In this document: positions 6,416 to 36,352 of the stretch, in pieces
Layout: each line of letters starts with the position of its first letter
How positions within the stretch are numbered: the first letter of the stretch is position 1
Assembly: GCA_032718475.1 (NCBI GenBank)
Contig: JAUCBJ010002596.1
Coordinates: 1 to 41,752 of the forward strand
Source: Nemertoderma westbladi
Taxonomy: Eukaryota > Animalia > Xenacoelomorpha
Direction: 5' to 3'
DNA length: 41,752 nucleotides
Translations under genes and position numbers: made by a program
Notes under the pieces: generated by a model
Databases searched by the model: none
The model's input: the letters and a program-made list of their open reading frames with translations, nothing else
Told to the model about the DNA's origin: nothing

Positions 6416-6421
6416 AATAAA
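6416..6421 (+). terminator. Candidate polyadenylation signal AATAAA of the SSUH2-like gene
   Basis: First AATAAA, about 70 nt after the TAG stop, with GT/T-rich sequence downstream (6480-6500). Confidence 0.45.
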
Positions 6422-8588: not shown

Positions 8589-9431
8589 CAGGGGAAAATC
8601 GACGCAATGGTCGGCTATGTGAACCCAATAACAATGCGTCTAACCTAATTACTGTAATTGTAATGTCTCTCATTATCATGTACAGCATTTGATTGGTTAA
8701 TTGGTATAACTACGTACTATTTTATATTAGTTGGCCAGTTATTACTATTTACTATTAATTATATATTTAATGTCGATTTGAATTATTGTGTATGTGTTAA
8801 CTATTATATATGAAAACCGACCAGCCGATCACAGGTGACTTATGGAGGATAGCTAGAAGTCGGCTAGTTTACCTAAGGGAGTAATTTTGGTTAGGCCAAG
8901 TTCCAACCACTCTTGGGTTATGTATAAAGGCGACTATTCGACCCCAGTGAACTGCAAGTAAGTCGCAAGTGGTCGGCTGTTCGGCTTACATATATCATCA
9001 TAGGTCTGAAGAGTCGAATTAGTCGGCAAAGTCGGCTCCACCTATAGTCTCTATGTAAAGTTTTGCGACTTTTAGCGACCCTCCATATAGTCTATTGTAG
9101 ACCTATGATGATATATGCAAGACGAACTGACGACCACTTATGCGACTTACTCTCAGTTCACTGGGTCGAATAGTCGCCTTTATACCTGTATAATATATAT
9201 AAGAATAATATAATTATCATATTAATAGTATTACTTATAGTTTATTATTTAGTACTTTATTAAGAAATTATTATTTAGCCGTACAGTAAGCATTACACCA
9301 ATCATATTGCCTAAAACGTGATGAGTTAATTACAAAAGAAGGCTTGTGATAGGCTGCGACCTGCCGACTGGGTGCGACCATTATTTTTCAAAGAAGGGTC
9401 GATTGGGATTTGCGTCGAGTTTCACCCCCTG
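8589..9431. mobile_element. Foldback MITE with CAGGGG...CCCCTG ends and candidate 4-bp TSD TCTC
   Basis: The ends caggggaaaatcgacgcaa / ttgcgtcgagtttcaccccctg are inverted. There is an internal ~85-bp inverted repeat at about 8922-9008 / 9098-9185. TCTC flanks both sides (8585-8588, 9432-9435). Confidence 0.7.
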
Positions 9432-9626
9432 TCTCCAAACAGCAGAACGAGAACAGAGCATCACACATATAAACTTTGTAAAATCCTACTGTGCATAGTT
9501 GTTGTACTTATTTGTGTAGCTTTCTAGAATAAACTTGCGATTCAGTATGCAGGGATATATTTTACTTTATATCCCAGTTAGATCACCGATAGACTTTAAT
9601 GCAGATCCCACCAGACAGTTTCGATA

Positions 9627-12600
9627 GCTGCAACCTGAAGGTAGGGGTGGGCGCTACTCCTATCTGCAACACGAAGGTATGGGTGGGCGCTAATCCTATC
9701 TGCTACCCGAAGGTTGGGGTGGGCGTTACTCCATCTGCTACCCGAAGGTAGGGGTGGGCGCTACTCCTATCTGCTACCCTAAGGTAGGGGTGGGCGCTAC
9801 TCCTATCTGCTACCCGAAGGTAGGGGTGGGTGCTACTCCTATCTGCTACCCGAAGGTAGGGGTGGGCGCTCCTCCTATCTGTCACCCGATGGTAGGGGTG
9901 GCGCTACTCCTATCTGCTTCCCGAAGGTAAGGGTGGGCGCTATTCCTATCTGCCACCCGATGGTAGCGAAGGCGCTACTCTTATCTGCTACCCGAAGGTA
10001 AGGGTGGGCGCTACTCCTATCTGCCACCCGATGGTAGGGGTGGGCGCTACTCATATCTGCTACCCGAAGGTAGGGGTGGGCGCTACTCCTATCTGATACC
10101 CGAAGGTAGGGGGTTGGCGCTACTCCTATCTGCTACCCGAAGGTAGGGGGTGGGCGCTACTCCTATCTGCTACCCGAAGGTAGGGGTGGGCGCTACTCCT
10201 ATCTGCTACCCGAAGGAAGGGGTGGGCGCTACTCCTGTCTGCTACCGGAAGGTTGGGGTGGGCGTTAATCCATCTGCTATCCGAAGGTAGGGGTGGGCGC
10301 TACTCCTATCTGCTACCCGAAGGTAGGGGTGGGAGCTACTCCTATCAGCTATCCGAAGGTAGGGGTGGGCGCTACTCCTATCTGCTACCCGAATGTAGGG
10401 GGTGGGCACTACTCCTATCTGCTACCCGAAGGTAGGGGTGGGCGCTACTCCTATCTGCTACCCGAAGGTAGGGGTGGGCGCTACTCCTATCTGCTACCGG
10501 AAGTTTGGGGTGGGCGTTAATCCATCTGCTACCCGAAGGTAGGGGTGGGCGCTACTCCTATCTGCTACCCGAAGGTAGGGGTGGGAGCTACTCCTATCTG
10601 CTACCCGAAGGTTGGGGTGGGCGTTACTCCATCTGCTACCCGAAGGTAGGGGTGGGCGCTACTCCTATCTGCTACCCGAAGGTAGGGGTGGGCGCTACTC
10701 CTATCTGCTACCCGAAGGCATGGGTGGGCGCTACTCCTATCTGCTACCCGAAGGTAGGGGTGGGAGCTACTCCTATCTGCTACCCGAAGGTTGGGGTGGG
10801 CGTTACTCCATCTGCTACCCGAAGGTAGGGGTGGGCGCTACTCCTATCTGCTACCCGAAGGTAGGGGTGGGCGCTACTCCTATCTGCTACCCGAAGGTAG
10901 GGGTGGGTGCTACTCCTATCTGCTACCCGAAGGTAGGGGTGGGCGCTCCTCCTATCTGCCACCCGATGGTAGGGGTCGGCGCTACTCCTATCTGCTTCCC
11001 GAAGGTAAGGGTGGGCGCTATTCCTATCTGCCACCCGATGGTAGCGGTGGGCGCTACTCCTATCTGCTACCCGAAGATAAGGGTGGGCGCTACTCCTATC
11101 TGCCACCCGATGGTAGGGGTGGGCGCTACTCATATCTGCTACCCGAAGGTAGGGGTTGGCGCTACTCCTATTTGATTCCCGAAGGTAGGGGGTGGGCGCT
11201 ACTCCTATCTGCTACCCGAAGGTAGAGGGGTGGGCGCTACTCCTGTCTGCTACCGGAAGGTTGGGGTGGGCGTTAATCCATCTGCTACCCGAAGGTAGGG
11301 GTGGGCGCTACTCTTATCTGCTACCCGAAGGTAGGGGTAGGAGCTACTCCTATCAGCTATCCGAAGGTAGGGGTGGGCGCTACTCCTATCTGCTACCCGA
11401 AGGTAGGGGGTGGGCGCTACTCCTATCTGCTACCCGAAGGTAGGGGTGGGCGCTACTCCTATCTGCTACCCGAAGGTAGGGGTGGGCGCTTACTCCTATC
11501 TGCTACCGGAAGGTTGAGGTGGGCGTTAATCCATCTGCTACCCGAAGGTAGGGGTGGGCGCTACTCCTATCTGCTACCCGAATGTAGGGGGTGGGCGCTA
11601 CTCCTATCTGCTACCCGAAGGTAGGGGTGGGCGCTACTCCTATCTGCTACCCGAAGGTAGGGGTGGGCGCTACTCCTATCTGCTACCGGAAGTTTGGGGT
11701 GGGCGTTAATCCATCTGCTACCCGAAGGTAGGGGTGGGCGCTACTCCTATCTGCTACCCGAAGGTAGGGGTGGACGCTACTCCTATCTGCTACCCGAAGG
11801 TAGGGGTGGGCGCTACTCCTGTCTGCTACACGAAGGCATGGGTGGGCGCTACTCCTATCTGCTACCCGAAGGTAGGGGTGGGAGCTACTCCTATCTGCTA
11901 CCCGAAGGTTGGGGTGGGCGTTACTCCATCTGCTACCCGAAGGTAGGGGTGGGCGCTACTCCTATCTGCTACCCGAAGGTAGGGGTGGGCGCTACTCCTA
12001 TCTGCTACCCGAAGGTAGGGGTGGGTGCTACTCCTATCTGCTACCCGAAGGTAGGGGTGGGCGCTCCTCCTATCTGCCACCCGATGGTAGGGGTCGGCGC
12101 TACTCCTATCTGCTTCCCGAAGGTAAGGGTGGGCGCTATTCCTATCTGCCACCCGATGGTAGCGGTGGGCGCTACTCCTATCTGCTACCCGAAGATAAGG
12201 GTGGGCGCTACTCCTATCTGCCACCCGATGGTAGGGGTGGGCGCTACTCATATCTGCTACCCGAAGGTAGGGGTTGGCGCTACTCCTATTTGATTCCCGA
12301 AGGTAGGGGGTGGGCGCTACTCCTATCTGCTACCCGAAGGTAGGGGGTGGGCGCTACTCCTATCTGCTACCCGAAGGTAGGGGTGGGCGCTACTCCTATC
12401 TGCTACCCGAAGGTAGGGGTGGGCGCTACTCCTGTCTGCTACCGGAAGGTTGGGGTGGGCGTTAATCCATCTGCTACCCGAAGGTAGGGGTGGGCGCTAC
12501 TCTTATCTGCTACCCGAAGGTAGGGGTAGGAGCTACTCCTATCAGCTATCCGAAGGTAGGGGGTGGGCGCTACTCCTATCTGCTACCCGAAGGTAGGGGG

Positions 12601-14885
12601 TGGGCGCTACTCCTATCTGCTACCCGAAGGTAGGGGTGGGCGCTACTCCTATCTGCTACCCGAAGGTAGGGGTGGGCGCTTACTCCTATCTGCTACCCGA
12701 AGGTAGGGGTGGGCGCTACTCCTGTCTGCTACCGGAAGGTTGGGGTGGGCGTTAATCCATCTGCTACCCGAAGGTAGGGGGTGGGCGCTACTCCTATCTG
12801 CTACCCGAAGGTAGGGGTGGGCGCTACTCCTATCTGCTACCCGAAGGTAGGGGTGGGCGCTACTCCTATCTGCTACCCGAAGGTAGGGGTGGGCGCTACT
12901 CCTATCTGCCACCCGATGGTAGTGGTGGGCGCTACTCCTTTCTGCTTCCCGAAGGTGGGGTAGGCGCTACTAATATCTGCTACCTGAAGGTAGGGGTGGA
13001 CGCTACTCCTGTCTGCTACACGAAGGTAGGGGTGGGCGCTACTCCTATCTGCTACCCGAAGGTAGGGATTGGCGGTACTCCTATCTGCTACCCGAAGGTA
13101 GGAGTGGGAGCTACTCCTATCTGTTACACGAAGGCATGGGTGGGCGCTACTCCTATCTGCTACCCGAAGGAAGGAGTGGGAGCTACTCCTATCTGCCACC
13201 CTATGGTAGGGGTGGGCGCTACTCCTTTCTGCTTCCCGAAGGTGGGGTAGGCGCTACTAATATCTGCTACCTAAAGGTAGGGGTGGGCGCTACTCCTGTC
13301 TGCTACACGAAGGCATGGGTGGGCGCTACTCCTATCTGCTACCTGAAGGTAGGGGTGGGCGCTACTCTTATCTGCTACCCGAAGGTAGGGGTGGGCGCTA
13401 CTCCTATCTGCTACCCGAAGGTAGGGATTGGCGGTACTCCTATCTGCTACCCGAAGGTAGGAGTGGGAGCTACTCCTATCTGTTACACGAAGGCATGGGT
13501 GGGCGTTACTCCATCTACCACCCGATGGTAGGGGTGGGCGCTACTCATATCTGCTACCCGAAGGTAGGGGTGGGCGCTACTCCTATCTGATACCCGAAGG
13601 TAGGGGGTTGGCGCTACTCCTATCTGCTACCCGAAGGTAGGGGGTGGGCGCTACTCCTATCTGCTACCCGAAGGTAGGGGTGGGCGCTACTCCTATCTGC
13701 TACCCGAAGGAAGGGGTGGGCGCTACTCCTGTCTGCTACCGGAAGGTTGGGGTGGGCGTTAATCCATCAGCTATCCAAAGGTAGGGGTGGGCGCTACTCC
13801 TATCTGCTACCCGAAGGTAGGGATTGGCGCTACTCCTATCTGCTACCCGAAGGTAGGGGTGGGCGCTACTCCTATCTGCTACCCAAAGGTAGGAGTGGGA
13901 GCTATTCCTATCTGCTACACGAAGGTATGGCTGGGCGGTACTCCTATCTGCTGCCAGAAGGTAGGGGTGGGCGCTACTCCTATCTGCTACCCGAAGGTAG
14001 GGGTGGGCGCTACTCCTATCTGCTACCAGAAGGTAGGGGTGGGCGCTACTCCTATCTGTTACCCGAAGGTAGGGGTGGGTGCTACTCCTATCTGCTACAC
14101 GAAGGTATGGCTGGGCGGTACTCCTATCTGCTACCAGAAGGTAGGGGTGGGCGCTACTCCTATCTGCTACCCGAAGGTAGGGGTGGGCGCTACTCCTATC
14201 TGCTACCAGAAGGTAGGGGTGGGCGCTACTCCTATCTGCTACACGAAGGTATGGGTGGGCGCTACTCCTATCTGCTACACGAAGGTATGGGTGGGCGCTA
14301 CTCCTATCTGCTACCCGAAGGTAGGAGTGGGAGCTATTCCTATCTGCTACACGAAGGTATGGCTGGGCGGTACTCCTATCTGCTACCAGAAGGTAGGGGT
14401 GGGCGCTACTCCTATCTGCTACCCGAAGGTAGGGGTGGGCGCTACTCCTATCTGCTACCAGAAGGTAGGGGTGGGCGCTACTCCTATCTGCTACACGAAG
14501 GTATGGGTGGGCGCTACTCCTATCTGCTACCCGAAGGTAGGGATTGGCGCTACTCCTATCTGCTACCCGAAGGTAGGGGTGGGCGCTACTCCTATCTGCT
14601 ACCCGAAGGTAGGAGTGGGAGCTATTCCTATCTGCTACACGAAGGTATGGCTGGGCGGTACTCCTATCTGCTACCAGAAGGTAGGGGTGGGCGCTACTCC
14701 TATCTGATACCCGAAGGTAGAGGGTGGGCGCTACTCCTATCTGCTACCCGAAGGTAGGGGTGGGCGCTACTCCTATCTGCTACCAGAAGGTAGGGGTGGG
14801 CGCTACTCCTATCTGCTACACGAAAGTATGGGTGGGCGGTACTCCTATCTGCTACCCTAAGGTAGGAGTGGGCACTACTCCTATC
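9627..14885. repeat. 36-bp GC-rich minisatellite, about 145 copies, with higher-order structure
   Basis: Consensus CTGCTACCCGAAGGTAGGGGTGGGCGCTACTCCTAT, head-to-tail with no spacers. It produces the 12-aa periodic ORFs (YPKVGVGATPIC, LLPEGRGGRYSY). Confidence 0.98.
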
Positions 14886-17355: not shown

Positions 17356-18270
17356 GTACAGTATTAGTAGGCCCTAATCCCTATATACTGTAGGTATTTT
17401 TTTTTTACCAGGGGGCCCGTTTGAACCCATGTCATGGTAGAATAAGGTCGTTTTCCGCTGTTATAATTATTATATGTCATTGTACGCGAGTATTAGTAAA
17501 TTAATATTGCCAATATGCTATTAATTAATACCACTGTGTACCGGTGAGTCAACAGAGCGGACTGGAGGCCAAAGTTAATATTGCTTATTTATTATTTGAT
17601 AATATTTTATATTTTTCAAAATTTAACTATCTTATCTTGAAAATGACAAGGATTTATATACAATTTAGTGAACTACTCGAAAAAGAAGGTCAATTTCTAC
17701 CTCGTAAAATTAAATATGGCCCAAGGGACTGTATCCCTGGATACAATGTTGTAAGTACCAGTTGGAAGTAAAAGTGTCTGAGTCTGTACTCCCAGATATT
17801 CCCATTGGCGATATCTCCTTTGCAGAAGTGAAGGCTGCTGCTGCAAAGAGCATCAAGACCAATCGTGCCAGTGGAGTAGAAATACCTGAGTGTTTAAAGC
17901 GTATCTATCCCATCATAGTAGACATGTACCGAACGGCAAGAGTCCCACAAGAAATGAAAACAAATAAGTTGGTGCCAGTTCCCAAGAAGGGCAACCTAAC
18001 ACTCTATGGTTCTTTTCGGGGAATCTCATTGATCTCGATTGCTGCAAAGCTATACAGTAGAGTTCTATTAAATAGCATCAGGGATCCCATTGAGAGACTG
18101 CTCCGTGGAAATCAGAATGGGTTCCGTAAAGGTCGTGGGACCATGGAGCCCATTTTGGCACTTAGAAGAATAATTGAAGAGTTATCAAAAAAGAAAGACA
18201 GGCATCTGGCTGTTATCTTTGTTGACTTCTTCAAGGCCTTTGATTCAGTCTCTCGCTCACGTATGTTCAG

Positions 18271-19676
18271 TAGGGCGGTGCATTTTTTACTTTTTTTCGA
18301 TTTCATTGTTCTACCGGTGCACAAAAGTTGCCAAATGGTAAAAAAAATAAGGCAAAAAAAATTTCTTTCAATTTCGTCTATATCTTCACGGATCCCAAGA
18401 GGGTTGAAATTTTGTGCCATCGCGATGCACCATAATGAAATTTATAACAATATAACACATTGATGAAAGATCAATGAGTCAAAAAAGAACTTCCTGCATA
18501 TATCAAATGTCATCAAATGGGTCCAAACTTAGTTAGATACCAAAATTTTAATTTTTGGATTAAGGGAAGTAGTGCCACAGGCACATGACCAGAACTTACT
18601 CTTTGGCGCAAGTGATGATTATTCTCAATTTTGGTGATGGACAACTTTTAGTTCTCCTACGGCATTAATATTATGCTCATTAGAACCGCAATGACCGATT
18701 TAGTGGAGGTAGCCACCATCAAAACAAGCATAGAGCGAATAGATCTTGATATATTGCAGAAAATGTAAAGTACGGCACAAGTCAACATTACCGCCTTGAT
18801 GATTTATAGACAAATACACAAAAATGTTACTTCTAATTATCTTAAGGCATCAAAAATATACACATCACTCCAACAAATTGATTTAGTGTATACAAACAAC
18901 TTCAAAATTAAAGAGTAGTGATTAATTCACTATAGTATTTGTACAAAATCTGTGGAATGGGTCAACTCAATATCAAGTATTAATTGGTGGACATAGTCTT
19001 GACATTTTGTAAAATAACTCAAGAACTAATGACTCTATTCTTAGTTTGAAGGTGTCTTCACCCACTATATCGATCATTTCTGTGATGTGTCTATTCGTGA
19101 TTCCTTGAGATAATTCAAAATATCATTTTTAGTATATTTGTCCATATCACATCAAGGTGGTAATGTAGACTTGTGCCGGACTTCACATTTTCTGCGATAT
19201 CTCAAGAACTATTCGCTCTACGTTTGTTTTGAAGGTGTCTACCCACTAAATCGGCCATTGCGGTTCTAATGAGCATAATATGAATGCAGTAGGAGAACTC
19301 AAACTTGGCCATCGCAAAAATTGAGAATAATCATCACTTGCGCCAAATGGTAGGTTCTGGCCATGTGCCTGTGGCACTAGTTCGCTTGATCTAATAATTA
19401 AAATTTTGGTATCTAACTAAGTTTGGACCCATTTGATGACATTTGATGCATGCAGGAAGTTCTTTTTTGAGTCATTGATCTTTCATCAATGTGTTATATT
19501 GTTATAAATTTCATTATGGTGTATCGCGGTGGCACAAAATTTCAACCCTCTTGGGATCCGTGAAGATATAGACGAAATATAAAGAAATTTTTTTGCCTTA
19601 TTTTTTTACCATTTGGCAACTTTTGTGCACCGGTAGAACAATGAAATCGAAAAAAAGTAAAAAACGCACCGCCCTA
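18271..19676. mobile_element. Non-autonomous long-TIR DNA transposon (hAT, possibly hATm-like) inserted in the RT
   Basis: Ends TAGGGCGGTGC...GCACCGCCCTA. About 600-bp inverted arms (18271-~18870 / ~19080-19676). 8-bp TSD ATGTTCAG/ATTTTCAG with one mismatch. Confidence 0.9.
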
Positions 19677-21040
19677 ATTTTCAGCATACTTTCATTATAT
19701 GGGATTCCTGATGAAATTATTGCAGCAATCAGATCAGTATACGATGGTTCGACAACACTTGTGTCTATTGTTGACGGTGACACAGAACCATTTGAAGTGT
19801 TATGGGGCGTCCTCCAGGGAGACACACTTGAACCATTCTTGTTCATAATTGTTGTTGACTATGTTCTACGCATGTCCTTAGATCATCAAAATGATGATGG
19901 GGTGATGATAACTCCACCTATTGGCTCCAGAAGTCGAGGAAATCCTGCCAAATACCTAACTGATCTAGACTTTGCTGATGACTTAGGAGTACTCTCAGAA
20001 TCACTAGAGGGAACTCAACGGCAGTAGTAGGGTCTTGGGCGGCTCTGCGACAGTTAGACCCCACTGACACCCATTGGGTGTCATATGACACCCAATTATC
20101 ACCCTATGGGTGTCATTGGGTGTCATTGGCGCCAGACTGTCTGGGTGACACCTCCCAATTAGGCTAATTAGACCCTAATTGAAAGGTGTCATCAATTAAT
20201 TAGTACAATTAAACCCTAACAGGTGTCATATGACTCCTAATTAGGGTTTAATTGATTATCCTAATTAATCAGACTGATTAGCGCCCTGACACACAATGGG
20301 TCATCAGTGTTGTCCAAGTGTCACAGAGCCGGGGGAAGAGGGTGTCATAAGTGACACCGCAGCTCTTTTATTCATTAATACTTATTTATTCGTATTTAAT
20401 TCTAAATTAATTATTCATTTGTACTTTATTTTAAATTAATTAATTGTATTACTTTTACTTTATACATTGATTTCTTAGCCATACTTAGCCATAGGGTATA
20501 CAGCTCCCCCACTGGCAACTAATTACTCTTATCTATATCCAGACAGCTTTATCGTTGACCTTTAACCCCCCAATTAGCTTTAACCAAGCAACAGCTTATT
20601 AATAATAGTTGTATCCAAGCGCCCCGCCCCCCCTCTCGTGACAGCTCTGATTACTAATTACTCTTACCTATATCCAACCGTCTGCAGGTCCATAGTCTGC
20701 CGCTAGAGGGCGTATTATCTGAAAATTAACATCTTCTCTAACTTTGTTATTTACAATCCGCAAAACTATGAAGTTATATTGCTTAAGAGTTCTAAGGGGC
20801 GAGCCATGAGGCAAGATGTTTGAGACTTATTTAGATATATTATTACTTAATTTGACCCCCCAATCGGCATCTACTACGGCATAGGCTATATCTTTTGCAG
20901 AGTCACAGAGTAGTATGAAGTTCCCCAGTCTGCCGCTAGAGGGCGAAATGTCTCAAAGTGAAAACCATACGGTAGCCATGAATTGGTTACTAGGCAATAA
21001 TACTGCATTTTGCAACGTTAGGCCTATTGCTGACCGAACG

Positions 21041-21122
21041 AAAACTGCCCTGGTTCATGCAGGGATCGAACCCATGACATACGGGAGATGTGAATTCAAC
21101 GCAACCACTACACCAAGGTGGA
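21041..21122 (-). ncRNA. tRNA-like Pol III unit / SINE head in the left TIR (mirror of 24510-24590)
   Basis: Minus strand: A-box TGGTGTAGTGG, B-box GGTTCGATCCC, then TTTT. Confidence 0.5.
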
Positions 21123-21185
21123 ACAGTAACCTTCGAATTTGTTCGTTGACGTTCGAATTTGTAAGACTCTCATTTAAGACCTGAC

Positions 21186-21776
21186 ACAGACTATGCCTCA
21201 CTGAGGCACTGAGGCATAGACTATGCCTCACTGAGGCACTGAGGCATAGACTATGCCTCAATGAGGCATAGACTATGACTCACTGAGGCATAGACTATAC
21301 CTCACTGAGGCACTGAGGCACTGAGGCATAGACTATGCCTCACTGAGGCATAGACTATGCCTCACTGAGGCATAGACTATGCCTCACTGAGGCATAGACT
21401 ATGACTCACTGAGGCATAGACTATGCCTCACTGAGGCATAGACTATGCCTCACTGAGGCATAGACTATGCCTCACTGAGGCACTGAGGCATAGACTATGA
21501 CTCACTGAGGCATAGACTTTGCCTCACTGAGGCATAGACTATGCCTCACTGAGGCACTGAGGCATAGACTATGCCTCACTGAGGCATAGACTATGCCTCA
21601 CTGAGGCATAGACTATGACTCACTGAGGCATAGACTATGCCTCACTGAGGCATAGACTATGCCTCACTGAGGCATAGACTATGACTCACTGAGGCACTGA
21701 GGCATAGACTATGCCTCACTGAGGCATAGACTATGACTCACTGAGGCATAGACTATGCCTCACTGAGGCATAGACT
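21186..21776. repeat. 22-bp palindromic tandem array in the left TIR
   Basis: Unit ACTGAGGCATAGACTATGCCTC. TGAGGCATAG-A-CTATGCCTCA is a perfect inverted repeat. Occasional 8-bp ACTGAGGC duplications occur. Confidence 0.95.
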
Positions 21777-22217
21777 TGCTTCACCATGGATGGGCTTTAC
21801 CACTGTACTCGCATCTGCTGTCTCATTGGCTGCTCGATGCCTCAGATTAAGGGTCTAAGGCCTTCAAGCTGATCATTTGCTTAGTTTTCTAATTAGAAGG
21901 TCGTGAGTTCGAACCCTAGAAGAGCATTATTCTTTTTCCTAGCTCTTGGCTAACTCTAGCATACACTAGCTTCGACTCTCCCAGCTATAGTGATAGTATG
22001 CAACCTTGGGAGTTAATGTGAGTAAAGGCCAAGAGATTAGACTTCAGGCTCCCTCTAATGGTTCATTCTTCTTAACTTTAGAAAATAGCACAACCCGTAT
22101 TTAAAGTTTTAAAAATTATGACTTAGTCGACCAATTTTCCAAGGTATATTATAAAACATATAATTTCTTGAATAAATAGGCCTAATAGTAATAAATATTG
22201 TGGGGTAAATACATTTA

Positions 22218-22326
22218 TAATACTAATATAATTATTATGGATAAATAGTCCTAATACTAATATAATTGTTATGGATAAATAGTCCTAATACTAATATAAT
22301 TGTTTTGGATAAATAGCCCTAATACT
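22218..22326. repeat. 34-bp tandem repeat x3 just downstream of the cargo ORF
   Basis: TAATACTAATATAATT(A/G)TT(A/T)TGGATAAATAG(T/C)CC at 22218, 22252 and 22286. Confidence 0.85.
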
Positions 22327-22341
22327 ATTATGAAAGGAACT

Positions 22342-23409
22342 TCAACAAACAAATGTCAATAGCGTCGTCCTGCGCGGGCATATACTGAACGAGAGTTTTT
22401 TTATCATAGGTCTTCGAAAATTAGTAAAAGCTGGTTGATTTACTTTACTTTCATCTTCCTCATTACCCAACTGTTTCTTAATTTTATTCAATTGCTCATT
22501 AATTTTCAGTAATTTACTTTTATTTCCCATAACCTGTCTTAATATCTCTTCTCTATTTTCCTCATTTTCTTCCATTTGTTTAATAAATTTCCGCATTTGA
22601 TTTTTGTTTCCTAATATTTGTCTCAATATCTCTTCTTTATTTTCATCATTCTCTTCTAAATGTTTAATACATTTCTGTAATTTAATTTTACTTCCTAGAA
22701 CTTGGGTCAATGTCGCCTCTTTATTTTCTTCATTTTCCTTCAAATGTTTAATAATTTTCCGCAATTGATTCTTATTTCCAAGTAATTGCCTCTTTATTTC
22801 CTCATTATCATCATTTTCATCCTCTTCTCCACTTTCCTGATCTTCACTTTCTTCACCCTCTTTCTGACCTTCACTTTCTTCATCCTCTTCCCCGCCTTCA
22901 CTTTCTTCATCCTCTTCCTGTTCTTCACTTTCTTCATCCTCTTCCTGTTCTTCACTTTCTTCATTCTCTTCCTGACCTTCGCTATCTTCACCCTCTTCCT
23001 GTTCTTCACTTTCTTCATCCTCCTCCTGATCTTCACTTTCTTTGTTCTCAACTTCACTCTCTTCAACTTCATCCTGACCTTCACTATTTTCATTCTCCAT
23101 CTCATCATCCTCTTCTTTTCCATCTTTCTCACTCAAAGTTTCCTCATTTTCTAGGGGTAACTGTTTTTGTATCCCTTTCAAAATATTCATAACTTTATGA
23201 AATTTATTTTCCATTGTCTGTTTTATATTTAATATATCACGCTCATCTCTCTTTTTCTTTTCATCTTCACTAAAAATATCTTCGGATTTTTTAAATTTTT
23301 TTGGTAATGGAGCCATTAGTTTTTCCTTTCTATGCGTTTCCATATGGCGAGATAAATTGTCTTGTCTCATTTCTTTATTACAAACCAAACAACTTTCATG
23401 TCTATGCAT
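22342..23409 (-). CDS. Cargo protein of the Polinton-like element: N-terminal C2H2-like zinc finger, acidic tract, 28-aa coiled-coil repeats (355 aa, unknown function)
   Basis: Intact intronless ORF starting at ATG with A at -3. Features: CLVC-x11-H-x3-H (CLVCNKEMRQDNLSRHMETH), basic PKKFKK, about 120 aa E/D-rich with 9-aa repeats, and four about 28-aa repeats (N-K/R-EE-I-LRQ-x-LG-NK...). Upstream promoter elements are present. Confidence 0.8.
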   Translation of the reverse strand: MHRHESCLVCNKEMRQDNLSRHMETHRKEKLMAPLPKKFKKSEDIFSEDEKKKRDERDILNIKQTMENKFHKVMNILKGIQKQLPLENEETLSEKDGKEEDDEMENENSEGQDEVEESEVENKESEDQEEDEESEEQEEGEDSEGQEENEESEEQEEDEESEEQEEDEESEGGEEDEESEGQKEGEESEDQESGEEDENDDNEEIKRQLLGNKNQLRKIIKHLKENEENKEATLTQVLGSKIKLQKCIKHLEENDENKEEILRQILGNKNQMRKFIKQMEENEENREEILRQVMGNKSKLLKINEQLNKIKKQLGNEEDESKVNQPAFTNFRRPMIKKLSFSICPRRTTLLTFVC

Positions 23410-23521
23410 TATATAGCAATGTCAATTAATAATATTGAATTTTAGCTAAATGATTTTACAAAATTTTAAATAAATTAAACTTTTATGAAAATAAATAAAA
23501 CTTTTTAATATAAAACTTAGA

Positions 23522-23647
23522 GAATGACTGGGAATGCGTTGAACGGGGGTTATTATAGAGGGAGGCTAGAATGGATTATCCAATCAGAGTGCGAGGGTGA
23601 GTTAGGCAGCCAATCAGGACTCGAGGGAGGAAAGTTAGACAGCCAAT
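23522..23647 (-). promoter_or_regulatory. Candidate Pol II promoter of the cargo ORF: 3 CCAAT boxes + TATA + Inr
   Basis: CCAAT at 23580, 23610 and 23643 (30 and 33 bp apart). Minus-strand TATAATAA starts at 23557. Inr TCATTC has A+1 at 23525, placing the TATA at -32. Confidence 0.6.
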
Positions 23648-23761
23648 GAGAGAGTAGATGCGAGTACAGTGGTAAAGCCCATCCATAGTGAGATAACGTC
23701 ACACTAACTCTCAAGGATAGTTATACTCACTATTCAAATATCCCTCGCAAACCAGATTCCC

Positions 23762-24443
23762 CTGAGGCACTGAGGCATAGACTATGCCTCACTGAGGCAT
23801 AGACTATGCCTCACCTGGGCACTGAGGCATAGACTATGCCTCAGCTGAGGCATGCTATGCCTCAGTGAGGCATAGTCTATGCCTCAGTGAGGCATAGTCT
23901 ATGCCTCAGTGCCTCAGTGAGGCATAGTCTATGCCTCAGTGAGGCATAGTCTATGCCTCAGTGCCTCACGTGAGGCATAGACTATGCCTCAGTGAGGCAT
24001 AGTCTATGCCTCAGTGAGGCATAGTCTATGCCTCAGTGCCTCAGTGAGGCATAGTCTATGCCTCAGTGAGGCATAGTCTATGCCTCAGTGAGGCATAGTC
24101 TATGCCCAGTCAGTGAGGCATAGTCTATGCCTCAGTGCCTCAGTGAGTCATAGTCTATGCCTCAGTGAGGCATAGTCTATGCCTCAGTGAGGCATAGTCT
24201 ATGCCTCAGTGCCTCAGTGAGTCATAGTCTATGAGTCATGCTTCAGTGAGGCATAGTCTATGCCTCAGTGAGGCATAGTCTATGCCTCAGTGAGGCATAG
24301 TCTATGCCTCAGTGAGGCATAGTCTATGCCTCAGTGAGGCATAGTTTATGCCTCAGTGAGTCATAGTCTATGCCTCAGTGCCTCAATGAGGCATAGTCTA
24401 TGCCCCAGTGAGTCATAGTCTATGCCTCAGTGAGGCATAGTCT
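23762..24443. repeat. 22-bp palindromic tandem array in the right TIR (mostly inverted relative to the left)
   Basis: Unit GAGGCATAGTCTATGCCTCAGT. The first few units (23762-~23850) are in the left-arm orientation. Confidence 0.95.
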
Positions 24444-24509
24444 GTGTCAGGTCTTAAATGAGAGTCTTACAAATTCGAACGTCAACGAACAAATTTGACG
24501 GTTACTGTT

Positions 24510-24590
24510 CCACTTTGGTGTAGTGGTTGCGTTGAATTCACATCTCCCGTATGTCATGGGTTCGATCCCTGCATGAACCAGGGCAGTTTT
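24510..24590 (+). ncRNA. tRNA-like Pol III unit / SINE head in the right TIR
   Basis: A-box TGGTGTAGTGG 24516-24526, B-box GGTTCGATCCC 24559-24569, T4 at 24587-24590. It resembles the head of the SINE at about 40792-40885. Confidence 0.5.
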
Positions 24591-27500
24591 CGTTCGGTCA
24601 GCAATAGGCCTAACGTTGCAAAATGCAGTATTATTTCCTAGTAACCAATTCATGGCTACCGTATGGTTTTCACTTTGAGACATTTCGCCCTCTAGCGGCA
24701 GACTAGGGAACTTCATACTACTCTGTGACTCTGCAAAAGATATAGCCTATGCCGTAGTAGATGCCGATTGGGGGGTCAAATTAAGTAATAATATATCTAA
24801 ATAAGTCTCAAACATCTTGCTTCATGGCTCGCCCCTTTGAACTCTTAAGCAATATAACTTCATAGTTTTGCGGATTGTAAATAACAAAGCTAGAGAAGAT
24901 GTTAATTTTAAATAATACGCCCTCTAGCGGTAGACAGGGGAACTTCATACTACTCTATGGCTCCGCAAAAGATATGGCCTATGCCGTAGTAGATGCCGAT
25001 TGGGGGGTCAAAATTAAGTAATAATATATCTAAATAAGCCTCAAACATCTTGCCTCATGGCTCGCCCCTTAGAACTCTTAAGCAATATAACTTCATAGTT
25101 TTTAAGGAAAACTGGTAAATGAGATGTGTTAATTACGCATACCTCGCAGTTTTAAGTAATTAATTATACAGTGGGTTAGATCGTTTTGAGAATAGGACCA
25201 TTGGAAAGAGCGCCCTCGATAACCTCAGTACAAAGAAAATTAATACGGATTAACCGGATATAGCTTGTTATTATAAAACATAAATTACAGTAGAACAATT
25301 AGGGTTGTAAATAAAAACAAATTAAATTGAAGATAAACTGTATATATAAACTTATGTATTAAAAGAGGGCCCTATTTAATTATACAGTATACTGAAAATG
25401 GTTAGCGATACCATAATTAGATTATCGATAGGGATGCGGTTTCCTTAAATGAGGCAATCCTGACGCAGCATAAAGAATTTTAAGAGGGGCCCCGATAAAT
25501 TGCTCATTCATGCGTAACTGGTAACCTAGGCGATAGCTTGTCTTAAGTTTAAGCCCTTTGCTAACATTATCTCCAAAATAGTTACCAGTAGGGGAGCTGT
25601 ATACCCTAGGGCTAAATAAGGCTGCAAGTCTATGGTTAGATGCTTCCAATAATGATCTCATTTAGTAGCGGTAAGTAATATAAAAACTAATTAATCTAAA
25701 AATAGAAATCAATGTATAAAGTAAAAGTAATACAATTAATTAATTTAAAATAAAGTACAAATGAATAATTAATTTAAAATTAAATATGAATAAATAAAGT
25801 AAAATAAAATATAGATAATTAATTAAAATTAAATATAAATAAATAAGTCTCAAACATCTTGCCTCATGGCTCGCCCCTTAGAACTCTTAAGCAATATACT
25901 GTAACTTCATAGTTTTGCGGATTGAAAATAACAAAGTTAGAGAAGATGTTAATTTTCAGATAATACGCCCTCTAGCGGCAGACTATGGAACTGCAGACGG
26001 CTGGATATAGGTAAGAGTAATTAGTAATCAGAGCTGTCACGAGAGGGGGGCGGGGCGCTTGGATTCAACTATTATTAATAAGCTGTTGCTTGGTTAAAGC
26101 TAATTGGGGGGTCAAAGGTCAACGAAAAAGCTGTCTGGATATAGATAAGAGTAATTAGTTGCCAGTGGGGGAACTGTATACCCTATGGCTAAGTATGGGT
26201 AAGAAATCAATGTATAAAGTAAAAGTAATACAATTAATTAATTTAAAATAAAGTACAAATGAATAATTAATTAAAATTAATGAATAAAAGAGCTGCGGTG
26301 TCACTTATGACACCCTCTTCCTCCTCTTTGCGACAGTTGGACATCACTGATGACCCATTGTGTGTCAGGGCGCTAATCAGTCTGATTAATTAGGTTAATC
26401 AATTAAACCATAATTAGGAGTCATATGACACCCGTTAGGGTTTAATTGTACTAATTAATTGATGATACCTGTCAATTAGGGTCTAATTAGCCTAATTGGG
26501 AGGTGTCACCCAGACAGTCTGGCGCCAATGACACCCATAGGGTGATAATTGGGTGTCATATGACACCCAATGGGTGTCAGTGGGTTCCAACTGTCACAAA
26601 GAGGAGGAAGACCCTACTACTAACGGCTCCTCAGATCATTAGAACATGCTGGTTCTAGTGTTGGTCTTTTTATTAACTCCAGAAAGACCAAAATTTTGAC
26701 AGTTAACTCTGAAAGTCCTCAGCAAGTATCTGATCGGATGAGCATAAGCTCAAAGGATGGTATGCTTGAGCTTGTGGACGACTTCTGTTACCTGGGATCA
26801 TGGATCAAGGCATGGGCAGCCTTGAATAGGCTTTCCTGGATTTGGAAGTCACCGAGAATTAATCGGAAACTTAAGGTCCGATTATTTAGAGCAGCAGTAG
26901 TTCCAGTACTCCTCTATGGGAGTCCATGCTGGGCTCTAACTACTGGGGACACCAAATCTCTGGATGGCACATTCACAAGAATGCTACGCCGGGTTCATTG
27001 TGTCAAGTACAATGCACACATCTCCAACCAGACACTATATAACATTGGAGGTGTCTCATTGGTTCCCCCAAGCTTGACACTAGAACAAAATCGCCTCCGC
27101 TTTGCAGGACATTGCTTTCGCCGTGAGGATCAGCCAGTGCATAATCTTGTACTTTGGCAGCCTCATGGAGTGAATAAGCAGGGTGGACAGCCCATGACTT
27201 TCCTGAGACGCATCTTAAAGGACACTGGCCTTGAAGATGCGGATGATCTAGCAAATGTCATGGGTGATAGGGAGTTGTGGCGGAGCAATTTTGTCGACAA
27301 GCCGGCACGCTTTCTTAAAATTGCAGCTGCAATGCAGCATGCCGATCCTAGTAGTAGTAGTAGTACCACACACACATAAGCAATGATGTGCTCTATAAGC
27401 ACCTCATTGCCAAAACCCAGCTTCACCCTGCACTCCCACCGTTTAAAGCTAGTCGCACTCTGTTATCGCCGATAGCCGGTTCACGACTGGTGTTTTAGCA

Positions 27501-27879
27501 ACCCACTGGATTGAACAGGCGTGGCGACCGTTCAATAACTTTCCATCACTGGCTTCGCAACGACACTAGATTTCGAACGTCCCCAAACTTAAGTGTACGG
27601 CTGTCAGAAATATTTGGGATGGCGTTGCTTCTGGGGCTACCGGCATTGCACCATAGTGTATGCGGACCACATATGGGTCAATGTGAAAATAAAAATCAAA
27701 TGTCCCATTCGTGGCAGAAAAATAATAAAATCTTAAATTTATTCATGTAAACTTTGTGGTAATACCGCTCACACCATTGTGTAGTCTCTCTGGGCGCAAG
27801 CAACAGATGGCTCCAGAGAAGTGAAGCTCGTTAAAAAGTAATCTACTTAAGGTGATGAGTGTGGGGCGAACCACGAAAG

Positions 27880-28080
27880 TAAGCGAGCTTAGCATACGGT
27901 TACTACTATCCCATCGGTGTGTCTGTAGATCTGTCGTTCTGTAGGTCCGTATTTTTAAACGTTAACTCAGCCAATCCTCGATGAAATCTAACCAAACTTG
28001 GTAGACATGTTGTTTAGCAAAAGTTTAGAAATTTACTAAGTATAAATTGCTAGGGGCCTTCAGGACGAGGGCAACGAGGC
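27880..28080. mobile_element. Probable DINE-1/Helentron-like fragment
   Basis: GTCTGT-type low-complexity stretch followed by 'aactcagccaatcctcgatgaaatctaaccaaacttggtagaca', similar in layout to the element at 292-560. Confidence 0.35.
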
Positions 28081-28502
28081 TAATGATTGAGCCGACACAA
28101 TTTCCAAAATCAATCTTGGAATTACTGCTTTTCCTACTATTTATCATACAGTACGTGTATGTATTCGGTGGTGGGTGTATTATAGGTGTGGTGTATGTAG
28201 GCTATGTGGTGTCTAACTTACCACAATCTCTAAGACAGGACAGGACTGCAGTATGTGTAAGTGCCACTTATAGTGGAGTGTGGGTTTGCGTTTCTCAACC
28301 CACCCTTATATCACATAGTGGTACTTACATACTATATTGTGACTTCAGAGTTCTATGTTCACCTACCGTTATTGTTGGTATTTTTAGTTATTAAGTAATC
28401 TTATAATTAATTAATTATTAAATATATTTATTAATATTTTTAATTCCAAATATTTTTAAATATATTTATAAATTAATTAATAAAATAATAAGTAATTTTC
28501 GT

Positions 28503-28680
28503 TTGACAAAGTTGAGCAAAATCGGCATTGAAATCAGGTGGGATCGAACTGCTGACCTCCAGGTTGGAAGTCTACCTGTCCAACCATTACAGAAATGGTT
28601 AGAGCGCCAGTCTTATACACTGGAGGTCACCAGTTCGATCCCACCCGTACATCAATGCCAACTTTGCTAAACTGTGCCAA
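28503..28680. repeat. Hairpin of two head-to-head tRNA-like sequences (core of a degenerate foldback element)
   Basis: ggcattga..ggtgggatcgaactg.tgacctccag..aaccatt pairs with aatggtt..ctggaggtca.cagttcgatcccacc..tcaatgcc. Each arm has a B-box GTTCGATCCC. An outer match ttctcaaccc (about 28292) / gggttgagaa (about 28843) suggests the arms extend further. Confidence 0.7.
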
Positions 28681-31188
28681 AAAAAATTACAATTATAAAA
28701 ACTACAAAATAAATGTAACTTATTTAGAGACCTCCCCTCAATGCTTCCCTATATATGCAAATCATGATTATAATAACTTTTAAGTGTCGCAGTACAATCA
28801 ATAATGTTCACACCGCGTAGAAGTGCGACCATGCGGTCGTGAGGGTTGAGAACCACAAGATACTTTACCAAAATCACACTTACCGAAGTGACGAGTGCTA
28901 GCTATATCATGTTATAGACATACCAACTGCAGGTGTTATGTATTTGCACAGCTTATTCTGCCTGGAGTTATAGTGAACTCAAATAGTTTCGTGCTAATCC
29001 GACTGTCTGTTTTTTATCTGTCTGTCTGTTCGTCACAGTATAACCAAGGAGAGCAGATCTTTGGGGTACCCACTACCCAAGAAAGCTATAGACCCCAATG
29101 AGAATAAATTATACCTCAATTATCCATGTTTTATTCAAAAATTTAATATTATAATATATTATAATTATTACTAGATACGCAATGTTTTTGTACAGCATTT
29201 AACGTTTAATATAATCTTATTGATATATCTATCTATATATACATGTTAAAGGGAACAAACAATATCGTAGAAAATGAGTCCAGTGTGAGTTTAGTGCAAG
29301 TTTAGTAATACAAACGTCAAAACATTAAAAGTAGAAATAATGGAGCACTTTAAGTTAGTTAGCATACAACATAATTACCAAATGCATATTAGCGACAAAT
29401 CAATCCCATCAGCTTTCATTAAAAAAAATTATTATAACAATAATGTTAAGTGCGCTTTAGTGACTTAAGCGAGAAACTTAAACATTTTTTCAAAAACGAA
29501 GAACAATAAGTTCGCGTTTTATGTATCGCGTATTAGTTTCATGGATGCCAGAAAAACCTTAGATTCACATTATTAAATTAGTTGAAGCATAAAAGGTAAG
29601 AACTAACAAAAATATACGTACATATTATATAAAAATAATATATAAAGTGAATTGAACACTTTAGTTGGGCTGCTACGCAAACACTAGTCAATCGACTTAT
29701 AATTGAATATAATACTGAATAGTCAAATATTCAAATATACCGGTAGTCAATATTAGTTTGCACAAAAAGACTGAATTAAATATTTATATACTTATTGTGC
29801 AAGGGTATTTGGAGCAAAATCTTATTTTTACAGACAACCTATTTGATACTAATAAGTAATAATAACAGATTACGTTTGTAAATTATGGTAAGAAGAGTTG
29901 TACAATACAAATTAACCCAAAAATAATTTGCCAATATGCGATGTGATACCTAAACGAAAATGAAACCAAACTCTGACGAAAAAACTATTAATGCCAGTAA
30001 CACCTCGCTGAAAATTCGCAAAGGTGGGAAATGTATCACCAATCCAATATTAAAGAAAAATTTAATAATTTAATGTATCATTAAATGTCATGACAGACCG
30101 GCAAGGAAAAATTTCAATATTTTGCCCAAAATAAGTAGAAACATAGCATTTTTAAACTCTAACAAATAACAATATTATTAATTCACATAAGTCGTATAAT
30201 TTACGGGCAGAAATGTGATTTAAAAAAATCGAATAGGCGGTTCTCGCCAAATTGATGCCAAAATTAATCCAAAAAGGTGAGGTAAATGAAAATATGCATA
30301 AAAATTATATAAAATAATAAATTTATTTACCGACATATTATCCATATCGTGCAATACTTGTTAATTAGCGGTGCTGATTAAATATTACACTTTTTATCTT
30401 AGGATTGGAGCCCACACCACAATCATATTTATATATATATATATATGAAATGTGCGTTGTGTCATTCAAATAGAAAATCTTAGATCTTAAAATCTGAAAT
30501 CGAAGATCTTAACCCGAAAAATACAAATTAATAGGCTCTAGTTAAACTTCGTTAACAAACTATTTGTTTTACTGAAAACAAAATGTGCAATAAACTAAGT
30601 ATTAAAAAAAACATTATAAGCAATAAATATAATATATACTGCATAAGTGCCATACTACTGATGACATTCTGGGCGAAGCAAACCCAACCACAAAAACACA
30701 CAATATAATTATATATTTTATAAAAAGTCGAAAAATTTACTTTCAAATTCAAATATCATTAATATTCTATAACCCAAACGCCAGTAATTGACTATGCAGA
30801 TAAAAATAAAACATATGACATTTAAAGAAACTATCATTATTGAGACATTAGTTGGGCCTAATATGTAAATGTTCTAAGTATATTGTAATATTATATTATG
30901 TAACAAATAAAGATATATTATGGTGATGACGTATGTACTAAAAATAGCAACATTGAAGCACTTAAGTGATATAATATGGCGACTTTAACCGAGTGTGTGA
31001 TAAACCTTCAAACAACTTAGTCTTCGCATTACGATAAAAAAATTGCCAAACACAATATCCATTGGAAATATATTACGAGGGATTATTGTATTATTGTTCG
31101 TGGCACCGAAAAATAAAAATACTTATTTTTTATTGTTAAATATCGAATTGTAAAAAACATTTAAAGGATCATAACTGCGGTTTTGAAT

Positions 31189-31287
31189 TAGGGATGTCCA
31201 GGAATTGATATTTTGATTCCAACCGGAACCGGAAATGGAAAAAAAACAGCCGTAATTCAGGCCAAACAGAATTCCAGACCATCCCTA
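31189..31287. mobile_element. Small old hAT-like MITE
   Basis: TIRs TAGGGATGTCCAGGAATT / AATTCCAGACCATCCCTA with internal AACCGG repeats. TSD not preserved. Confidence 0.5.
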
Positions 31288-34200
31288 GCATTAATAAGGA
31301 AGTTTCTACTTGATTCTTTCGGGGAGTTATAAAGTTTTATAAATAATAAAACCAAAATTCGGTAAACTATCTAAGTTGGATAAACCATAGCGAGATATGC
31401 CAAAATAACACATAATGAAATATCAACCTGTAGCGATATATATGCGATCTGTTAATAAGTATTGGGACTATATACTTTTTATATTAACTGACCTGAGTAA
31501 TAGATAAGGGAACTTTTAACTCACACACATACCGAGCCGAGAGTTTGGGACAGATAAAACGTAAATAAATACAATTAATACCGAAATCAAATCTTGCCAA
31601 CGCCTTTGTTTGTACCTTTAATTATGTATTTTAATTAACATGAGAAAAAAAATAATAAAAGTTGATGAACAAAAGAAGAAATTACGATATGGAATAAAAT
31701 ACAACAATGATTATTGATTACTTTACTAGGCTAAAGTAATACGAAGACACGTGGCATTATGTTAGTGGATTCCATAAAGCCAAGCTATTAAAGAACCCGA
31801 GCCATCCTTCCGTTTCTTTACGCTTTTATTAGGACCATATCGCCCCAAATTAAGAGCTTTAATAAATGAAACGGGATGTTAAAACTGTCACAACATTGCA
31901 CTTTAATTCCCTTTTAATATATTTAATTGGCTTTCAGGTGGAAAACAAATTGATTACAGTATCAGCGATGTCAGTGAGAGAAAAAAGGCGGTGGGCCAAA
32001 AGCAATAAAATAAAGTTGTATAGTTGGGATTTTGATTACCGATATTTCGAACAATTTAAATTGTGCGCCGATGCAATCTGAACTGAAAGTATTACAATGT
32101 CTGCGGTAGTATAGGTATCAAAGGAGTACTATAGAGCTGTCTAGAAAATATAAAGAATACCAGGTTTTCACTTTTCGGTCGAAATTTTATAACAATTTCA
32201 TACGAAAAATTAGATTTTACAAAGTGTTTTATAGCGCTTATTTCGGTGTTATAACCTGTACATATACTAATTCGTTTATTGTTTTGGTTCGATTCAGCCC
32301 TTATAAAACCTGGGATATTAGTGAAAAGAAAACCTTGTACTCTTCACACGCTCTTCACACTGCAAAGTGAAATATATCAACATAAAGTTTCGTATACTCA
32401 CATATATTCACTCACATGGGCCTCGAATTTAATTTCAGTGTTCATCACTAAATGATTTTATTTTCTAATTTAATTAATGTTCAGCAGGGCAGGTTACATT
32501 TAGTCCAAATATCCGCGAAATTTATTGATAATATTGATATCAAATGACTTCAGGGTTAAAGATTAATTAAACTAATTAATTTTTTAATTAGAGTTAAGTC
32601 AAGTCCATGACACATTGACACTCACCCTATTTATAATAACTAAACTCACATAGACTCAACAGCGATGCATGTGGTAGGCCTACCTGCCCGTCATTAGCCA
32701 TTTCAATATAAAACAGCGTTCTATGACATCAGAAATACCATTAAAAAGAAATAAAAATGTGTGAACTATTTATGTAAATTATAAGAAAAACAAGGCAATA
32801 ATACATATTCTACAGACTTTCTTAAACAGGACGTCACAATTTCTATCCCACCTGGCTGAAAGCCTTTCTAAGCTTTCATGAACGAAAATGTATAATAGAT
32901 ATTCTTGGAACAAAGTCAAAGTATGTAGTTACTACTGGACTGGACAGTTGTACATAATGACACCCGCCCCGCATGTTTCGTAAAAAAAAAACCAGTTTAA
33001 GGGGACCTAAATAGCGCCATAACAGAACATTACAGTTAATATATTGGCGGCAAAATGGTAAAAAAAACATGAAAAACGGACAAGTCAGGACAAGGGGGGA
33101 AGGTAATTGTACTTGTTTTAAAAAATAATACCAAATAATAGGGTTGGAAAGTTTGGTAGTAAATTAAAATAACTTCCCATAGGACATATTATTACTTCAT
33201 TTTGAATTTAGGTAGTTGAATATGGTCTTTAAGACAATATTTGTTCACTAACCTATTCTAGGGATATTCATATATCATTTAATTATTATTCTTACTTAAT
33301 ACATTTAATACCATGGAAGACATTATAAATTAAGCGCGCCCTTTGTATTAAATAATAACTATTGCCAGTGAGTAAAATAATGTATAACGAAGAACTAAAT
33401 AACAAACTCCACGGTACACATTGCTACAACGGGCCAGCCATACAGCGTTGGTGGTACTCCGGATTATATATTATTACTTTTCACTTTGTCATTTCCACGG
33501 AATCTATCGATTCCAATAAATACAGTAAAAAATCAAAAGGCAAAACTTTTCAGTTTTCGCTTTTAAGAACAAAAAAAATGAAGTTATTGAACTGATAATT
33601 AAGTTATGTGCAAATCAAATTCCAAGTTTCGATCTATCATTATTAACTTATCGATAGATTATTTGAGTTCATCCAAGTGTAGGAAAAGCGCTTCGGTAAA
33701 CGAAAAGTGCGGAAACTTCGGACATAATCGTATTTTTCGCCTATTTTATTAAACCGCCTGCTAATTAACATAATGTAATGTTTCCTCTGTGACATTTAGT
33801 GGGATAGAGTAATGAAAGACCGCGAAGAATATATACCAATAATTATAAACCAACGTACCGGTATACTCATTACGTGAGGGAGTACAATAATAACAACATA
33901 CAATCACTCTTCTACACATGCAAAAAAATTAATTAAAGTATTAATTTATTATATTACACTTATTTCTTTAATGGAGTAAAAAACATGAAAAAAATGAAAG
34001 ATATGTGAGCGAACTACTACAATAGGCCTGCGACGGCAGACAAAAAATATATATATCCGTAAAGGGCCATCCATCAGCGCCACTAAATAAAAGAAACCAC
34101 AAGGCTGGCGGAATAAACTGCGACGGTAGAGCCACACCGACACACACCCAGCAGCACTTAGGGCTATACGATATAACTAATCTATAATATTATATATGTA

Positions 34201-34420: not shown

Positions 34421-36352
<1,932 letters not shown>

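Follow-up and report, generated by a model that had tools for sequence, protein, structure and literature searches.

Locus and insertion boundaries

Contig JAUCBJ010002596.1 of Nemertoderma westbladi was analysed as one stretch of 41,752 nucleotides (41.7 kb, hereafter the window), and the subject of this work is a 6,599-bp mobile element with Maverick/Polinton-like ends that occupies positions 20023-26621 as a precise insertion within a reverse-transcriptase (RT) reading frame. For comparison, Logan contigs were used from four public DNA runs (X1-X4, from three studies) that carry the same organism label. The two ends of the element, the copies of its target-site duplication (TSD) and the interrupted host frame are arranged as follows.

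19641-20022, plus strand: host reverse-transcriptase frame, left part, which includes the FADD box
20017-20022, unstranded: left TSD copy, AACGGC, a single hexamer in the RT paralogue contigs
20023-20036, plus strand: left terminus AGTAGTAGGGTCTT, (AGT)2AG, a Maverick-type end motif
26608-26621, minus strand: right terminus, repeating the 14 nt of the left terminus in perfectly inverted form, its last bases being CT(ACT)2
26622-26627, unstranded: right TSD copy, AACGGC, with left flank sequence preceding 26622 in four of four runs
26628-27379, plus strand: host reverse-transcriptase frame, right part

The termini of the element are 5'-AGTAGTAG...CTACTACT-3', with the start reading AGTAGTAGGGTCTT and the finish reading AAGACCCTACTACT. 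The outermost 14 nt are perfectly inverted and have two exact sites in the whole window, both at the termini of the element. The AACGGC duplication measures exactly 6 bp, since the adjoining bases differ on each side, outward as well as inward. An alternative boundary, with a hAT-like end at TAGGGTC and an 8-bp TSD, was ruled out because the flanking octamers do not repeat.

The left part of the host frame terminates in ...EGTQR (FADDLGVLSESLEGTQR), the element splits the codon C|TC, read as L, and the right part resumes with LRSLEHAGSSVGLFINSRKTKIL... (LRSLEHAGSSVGLFINSRKTKILTV...FCYLGS). Against a 964-aa homologue comprising APE and RT, the last residue matched by the left flank is 732 and the first matched by the right flank is 734. 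Homologues of the right part bear RVT_1 together with Exo_endo_phos domains, the architecture of APE-type retrotransposons lacking long terminal repeats. In every one of the four runs, RT paralogue contigs diverge from the window after 20022 and take up the sequence of 26628, contigs joining at 26622 are preceded by the sequence of 19990-20016, and uninterrupted RT paralogues show a single AACGGC between the flanks; the second copy was therefore created by the insertion. An earlier reading of this DNA, made from its letters alone (the sequence-only reading), had located the TSD within an RT frame that is intact without the insert, and both the colinear homologue and the paralogue contigs of all four runs bear this out. 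Its exact 6-bp AACGGC duplication is likewise real, but the left copy lies at 20017-20022 and not at the start that had been given.

The host region has features of its own. By summed depth, as defined below, the APE and RT retrotransposon (measured over 26844-27242) reaches approximately 93,000 copy-equivalents in X1, 39,000 in X2 and 39,000 in X3. Just upstream of the insertion lie two inverted stretches of 365 nt (18342-18706 and 19243-19607) that are 92% complementary. An RVT_1 open reading frame (ORF) is present at 17714-18460, and the host retrotransposon region shows nesting or rearrangement of its own.

Arms, terminal modules and middle domain

Within its boundaries the element consists of two long inverted arms that enclose a unique middle domain, with the following subdivisions.

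20023-21832, plus strand: non-coding left inverted arm of 1,810 bp, its frames without a Pfam domain
20023-20453, plus strand: left terminal module, 10 GGTGTCA/TGACACC motifs mostly in palindromic pairs, then an AT-rich stretch; the highest-copy part of the arm
21237-21784, unstranded: tandem array in the inner arm with a unit of 22 bp, CACTGAGGCATAGACTATGCCT, each unit being a small palindrome
21833-23639, unstranded: unique middle domain (loop), 1,807 bp, 32% GC
23640-26621, minus strand: non-coding right inverted arm of 2,982 bp, its frames without a Pfam domain
23768-24443, unstranded: right-arm counterpart of the 22-bp array
24935-25832, unstranded: sequence of ~0.9 kb confined to the right arm, comprising a 232-bp unit and an AT-rich piece, each duplicated, together with lower-copy sequence of ~600 bp
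26273-26621, minus strand: right terminal module, 8 GGTGTCA/TGACACC motifs

The arms are ~96% alike by substitution identity and together make up 72.6% of the element. These dimensions (1,810 and 2,982 bp around 1,807 bp, with one long ORF) agree with the arms of about 1.8 and 3.0 kb around some 1.8 kb of unique DNA that had been described earlier. The motif-bearing outer ~350 bp of the arms have a GC content of 43-46%, and the AT-rich stretch next inward has 16%. Further inward follow ~750 bp with 232-bp units and then the 22-bp arrays.

The GGTGTCA/TGACACC motif is concentrated at the ends of the element: of the 20 sites that the window contains, 18 fall within the terminal ~330 bp of both arms, as compared with ~0.09 expected. 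Many of these motifs pair as short palindromes, such as TGACACCCATTGGGTGTCA, and the first 148 nt form a row of hairpins on folding (z = -4.87) whose stability was equalled by none of 200 shuffled sequences. No tRNA and no Rfam match was detected in the arms or in the element as a whole, and a tRNA-like or short interspersed element-like origin of an ORF in the arm (the 'GIEP' frame) was dropped on these grounds. An 18-mer palindrome was also found at 11 loci in the collections scanned; BLAST showed nothing beyond the motif among the matches listed, and the recurrence was taken as chance.

Abundance in public DNA runs

The single-copy baseline depth, taken from long contigs over 28.5-36.4 kb, was 22-34 in X1, 50-67 in X2 and 31-33 in X3, and copy-equivalents were obtained by dividing the summed contig depth by ~26, 58 and 32, respectively. 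Matches were counted from 90% likeness, and each element holds two arms. For the end module (20082-20329) the summed depth amounted to 138,000-255,000 in X1, 135,000-434,000 in X2 and 16,000-44,000 in X3, corresponding to 5,300-9,800, 2,300-7,500 and 500-1,400 copy-equivalents; end-module depth thus varies ~5-fold among the runs. For the inner arm (20454-20701) the values were 1,050-1,520 copy-equivalents in X1, 670-880 in X2 and 160-360 in X3, and the sequence confined to the right arm (25248-25646) gave ~630, ~150 and ~60. The end module is thus ~4-8 times commoner than the next 250 bp of arm. Variant members were also recovered, in the form of contigs with internal deletions, for instance of 58 and 64 bp.

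These figures suggest that the terminal ~430 bp are present at ~1,000-10,000 copy-equivalents and the inner arm at hundreds, and that the majority of members have no more than the terminal ~430 bp in common, with long forms such as the element at 20023-26621 being a minority. The claim that the element is a 'minimal' one is overstated in view of this depth profile, which suggests that far shorter members, consisting of the end module alone, are in the majority. An estimate that 70% of the element is cis-acting arm was also too strong, since the top copy number is limited to the terminal ~430 bp; inward of it the arms are made up, as in Foldback elements, of segmental duplications, filler of lower copy number and hairpin arrays with a 22-bp unit.

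The element belongs to a family and is not a single-copy deletion relic, because three independent DNA data sets contain its arm sequence in highly repeated form. The Maverick-type ends and the lack of genes would both be expected if a single full-length Polinton had been reduced by deletion after its insertion. Such an origin is nevertheless extremely improbable, given that the arms occur at hundreds to thousands of copy-equivalents in the three data sets, that no remnant of a Maverick gene was found in any frame, and that the arms far exceed the published range of 46-1,447 bp for Maverick terminal inverted repeats (TIRs) (PMC8097293). The sequence-only reading had also taken the element to be non-autonomous and not a deletion relic, in keeping with the repeated arms and with the lack of core genes described below.

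The excess of the end module over the adjoining arm raises another explanation, which concerns the architecture of the 6.6 kb only and is compatible with Maverick-type ends. Here the long element would be a one-off, in which two inverted copies of an abundant short end-module element moved, or merely flank, unrelated DNA, and the long ORF would be a captured host fragment. As opposed to this, the homology between the arms reaches 1.8 kb, far past the end module, the inner parts in turn recur hundreds of times, and one clean 6-bp TSD brackets all 6.6 kb. The coding content of the middle domain bears on the same question from both sides.

Coding content of the element

The middle domain contains the single long ORF of the element, with a group of short motifs upstream of it.

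22342-23409, minus strand: ORF of 355 aa in which one C2H2 finger (residues ~7-26) is followed by a helix, by an acidic, disordered tract derived from 27-bp repeats and by a helix of ~120 residues derived from 84-bp repeats
23578-23650, plus strand: three motifs resembling the CCAAT box, spaced 30-33 bp and lying 170-240 bp upstream of the minus-strand ORF start

The only other ORFs of at least 80 aa in the element are a 109-aa alternative-frame shadow within the repeats of the long ORF and one 89-aa ORF in each arm. Pfam returned nothing above cut-off for the long ORF, and none of 24 further stop-to-stop frames of at least 45 aa gave a match at E <= 0.1. Polymerase, integrase, capsid and transposase domains were not found among the frames of the element scanned with Pfam, so the absence of Polinton core genes noted earlier extends to the long ORF and these 24 frames.

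The 355-aa ORF is not a compositional accident. None of 2,000 shuffles of the core reached 359 open codons, the longest run being 126, and the ORF frame contains its terminal stop only, as compared with 22 and 68 stops in the two other frames of the same strand. All the internal repeat periods (27, 81 and 84 bp) are divisible by three. A single-sequence AlphaFold model, used for secondary structure only (mean pLDDT, the predicted confidence score, 63.6), places one helix at residues 48-83, a long confident helix at 199-320 and, between the two, an acidic, disordered tract at ~87-196. The CCAAT-like motifs upstream give no more than a hint of a promoter, their number in the window as a whole not being above chance (8 matches as compared with 4.3 expected).

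Homology searches returned few relatives. No full-length relative was present among the near-length proteins of a 5.8-billion set, the N-terminal region gave no match to shorter proteins, and matches from the ESM Atlas scored below 0.9 and serve as leads only. An exhaustive HMMER search of 1.84 billion representatives gave eight matches at E <= 0.001, with no match reaching E <= 1e-10. The N-terminal motif CLVCNKEMR.DNL.RHM..H is shared, at 52-67% identity, by three of these (68, 148 and 144 aa, together with one cluster-mate), and the other five are confined to acidic or helical low-complexity parts of the ORF. The relatives with this motif repeat it at least twice and, with 25.2-26.9 bits, reach the Pfam zf-C2H2 cut-off, whereas the finger of the ORF itself (C-x2-C ... 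H-x3-H) scores 15.5-16 bits (E ~0.02) and stays under it. In the small proteins P0022, P0025, P0027 and P0028, encoded on ENA contigs of 586-1,115 bp, at least two copies of the finger CLVCNKEMRKDNLQRHMKIH are followed by other C2H2 fingers; these four proteins are the sole relatives found for the N-terminus of the ORF.

The ORF may be either a gene of the family or a captured fragment. For the one-off explanation introduced above, capture is suggested by the lack of a full-length homologue in the sets of 5.8 billion and 1.84 billion proteins, by the single finger being all that matches small multi-finger proteins, and by the acidic and coiled repeats, which are typical of fast-evolving or decaying sequence. 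An ORF that is intact over 355 codons, with repeat periods that keep its frame, speaks against it. Taken with the evidence from the arms and the TSD, a one-off assembly was considered possible yet doubtful. The description of the element as a vehicle for one regulatory-looking gene can be retained in part: the ORF looks real and has one C2H2 finger, but the role of vehicle was overstated.

Comparison with Maverick/Polinton elements

According to PMC8097293, 5'-(AGT)2//(ACT)2-3' is the commonest end motif of vertebrate Mavericks, the other published motif being (AG)3//(CT)3. There, the end motif in combination with a perfect 6-bp TSD serves as a criterion for recognizing a Maverick, and the end repeats are interpreted as being needed for jumping-back in protein-primed replication. 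Mavericks are also characterized by 6-bp TSDs and long TIRs in other work (PMC8969392; PMC10748475). The element has the same (AGT)2//(ACT)2 ends, a perfect 6-bp TSD and long inverted ends, and the Polinton-type ends and TSD recognized in the sequence-only reading are an exact match to this published diagnostic. The chance that a random inverted end would open with either published hexamer is ~2/4096.

In other respects the element departs from the Maverick plan. It measures 6,599 bp as compared with 12.7-24.6 kb, and its arms of 1.8 and 3.0 kb are unequal and internally repetitive, as compared with Maverick TIRs of 46-1,447 bp (PMC8097293). The pPolB, integrase, ATPase, protease and capsid genes of Mavericks are lacking, and the copy number is very high. 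Non-autonomous Polintons bear names in Repbase usage, such as Polinton-1N1_DR (PMC9341505) and Polinton-N1A_NV (PMC11296320). These represent the same concept as the element, Polinton ends without core genes, a likeness drawn from their names only, and Polinton-N1A_NV retains a capsid protein gene, unlike the element (PMC11296320). The terminal pattern of the element gave no match in viral contigs, and a 26-mer gave none in metagenomes.

Three other groups came under consideration and were rejected. IS3EU/GingerRoot elements share the 6-bp TSD, but have termini TA..TA (occasionally TG..CA) where the element has AG..CT (PMC10045372). Ginger2 has TGTNR termini and an AT-rich RTATAY target, as opposed to the AGTAG ends and AACGGC target of the element (PMC2836005). 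Dada has no TIRs and inserts in small-RNA genes, as opposed to the long TIRs and RT-frame target seen here (PMC3706591). Among the documented candidates with 6-bp TSDs, Maverick is the likely assignment of the element because its ends fit Maverick only.

Comparison with Foldback elements

The known TSDs of Foldback relatives have other lengths, for example 9 bp for FB and 7 bp for Galileo. The Foldback plan, as set out in PMC4079207, consists of an outer domain, internal tandem repeats, an inner domain and a middle domain, with TIRs that are long and often unequal. According to the same source this shape evolved independently in several lineages, with most such elements belonging to Mutator and Galileo belonging to P. 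The resemblance to Tetris and DAIBAM of Drosophila virilis (PMC4079207) is close, and FB and Galileo belong to the same comparison: the element likewise has an outer end domain, TIRs that are long, unequal and filled with tandem repeats, and a middle domain that is small and variable. Both are non-autonomous, and both have a shorter relative with the end portion only, in the manner of a MITE (miniature inverted-repeat transposable element). Tetris differs in its TSD of 8-10 bp and is assigned to Mutator (PMC4079207), whereas the element has a 6-bp TSD, AGT-repeat ends and an intact middle ORF.

This resemblance raises the alternative that the element is a Foldback-type, non-autonomous cut-and-paste transposon of another, possibly undescribed, DDE superfamily with 6-bp TSDs, in which AGTAGT would be coincidental and GGTGTCA would represent transposase-binding sites. 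The unequal long arms, the internal tandem arrays and the small middle domain all fit the Foldback plan, the shape is described as having had independent origins in several lineages (PMC4079207), and the 18 subterminal GGTGTCA/TGACACC copies and the MITE-like, very high copy number point in the same direction. This alternative was nonetheless judged unlikely. Among the documented superfamilies only Polinton pairs a 6-bp TSD with AG..CT ends, Foldback TSDs differ, being 8-10 bp in Tetris (PMC4079207), and an exact (AGT)2 at both ends would arise by chance in ~1 in 2,000-4,000 cases.

The element is probably best described as a non-autonomous, foldback-type derivative of Maverick/Polinton, and this is the interpretation favoured here. 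Several observations nevertheless weigh against it. Dense subterminal repeats together with long, unequal and repetitive arms are a hallmark of cut-and-paste Foldback elements, and thousands of copies are unusual for Maverick-related DNA. Bases 15-26 are unlike between the two ends of the element, the TSD measurement covers one copy of the element, and no Maverick gene was found among the frames scanned with Pfam in the 41.7-kb window. Summed contig depth is not equal to copy number, and in the low-coverage run X4 the end module reaches only ~20-35 copy-equivalents, with zero in one bin. Finally, the published end motif used for the comparison is that of vertebrate Mavericks. The end-motif class of Polintons, including those of arthropods, was reportedly described by Kapitonov & Jurka (2006).

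Predicted mobilization and significance

On the grounds of its Maverick-type ends and 6-bp TSD, the element was therefore likely inserted, and is predicted to be copied, by the enzymes of full-length Mavericks in trans. In this scheme the integrase and the protein-primed polymerase of a full-length Maverick would act on the element, and the terminal module (~430 bp, with hairpin-forming pairs among its 8-10 GGTGTCA motifs) would be the cis-acting part that is recognized by the helper proteins. During protein-primed initiation, jumping-back would rely on the AGT repeats. As in Foldback elements, the arms, with their 22-bp arrays and duplications, may have become long and unequal by replication slippage or copy-back together with unequal exchange.

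Snap-back defective genomes are known from adenoviruses. A more speculative proposal, and an improbable one on present evidence, is that Mavericks have Foldback 'satellites' that constitute a separate, high-copy class of mobile DNA in animals, born, like those snap-back genomes, as copy-back defective genomes during protein-primed replication and then integrated by a helper integrase. Under this proposal the C2H2 protein of the element itself would bind the GGTGTCA end repeats and so capture the helper machinery.

Mavericks/Polintons are usually viewed as giant, low-copy, gene-rich and virus-like. If the Maverick derivation favoured here is correct, the integration and replication machinery of Mavericks can sustain MITE-like parasites, and the Foldback shape arose in yet another lineage. 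Repeat annotation that relies on structure only would misfile such elements, and the exact end motif offers a simple handle for finding pairs of helper and satellite. Non-autonomous Polintons are already known by name. For the foldback, high-copy form, no description of short, high-copy or foldback Polinton/Maverick derivatives was found by phrase searches of the open literature, which for foldback forms covered the top-ranked papers; Repbase Reports and subscription papers lay outside this search, and an earlier description there is possible.

Other features of the window

Upstream of the insertion, a 3.3-kb satellite occupies 2766-6080, with a 26-bp unit in ~118 registers at 85-96% identity. 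This satellite has a strong strand skew, with a GC skew of +0.37 to +0.44 and an AT skew of -0.58. A GC-rich block (57-60%) stands out from an AT-rich background at 10579-14757 and contains repeated ORFs that match the insect cuticle domain Chitin_bind_4, the match for 13678-14754 having an E value of 1.7e-13; on this basis the host was described as resembling an arthropod.

Downstream, a high-copy repeat at 32031-32429 lies in otherwise single-copy DNA and has a summed depth of 46,000-129,000, as compared with a baseline of 22-67. One contig links arm position 24542 to 32266, with 24 nt on one side of the junction, possibly by chance. On the minus strand, positions 34421-36352 hold a 643-aa ORF without introns, a poly(A)-polymerase type related to Cid1/TUTase (MTPAP-like_central, PAP_assoc and NTP_transf_2), which has a GC content of 56-58% in surroundings of 30% and is single-copy by depth.

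Inverted arrays of a 15-bp unit, GCGTCGTTAGGTCCT, are present at 37970-38157 and 40228-40413 and enclose ~2.2 kb. Between them lie two ORFs, at 38410-38820 and 39057-39575, neither of which has a Pfam match. The whole structure (37970-40413) is possibly a second foldback-like element.

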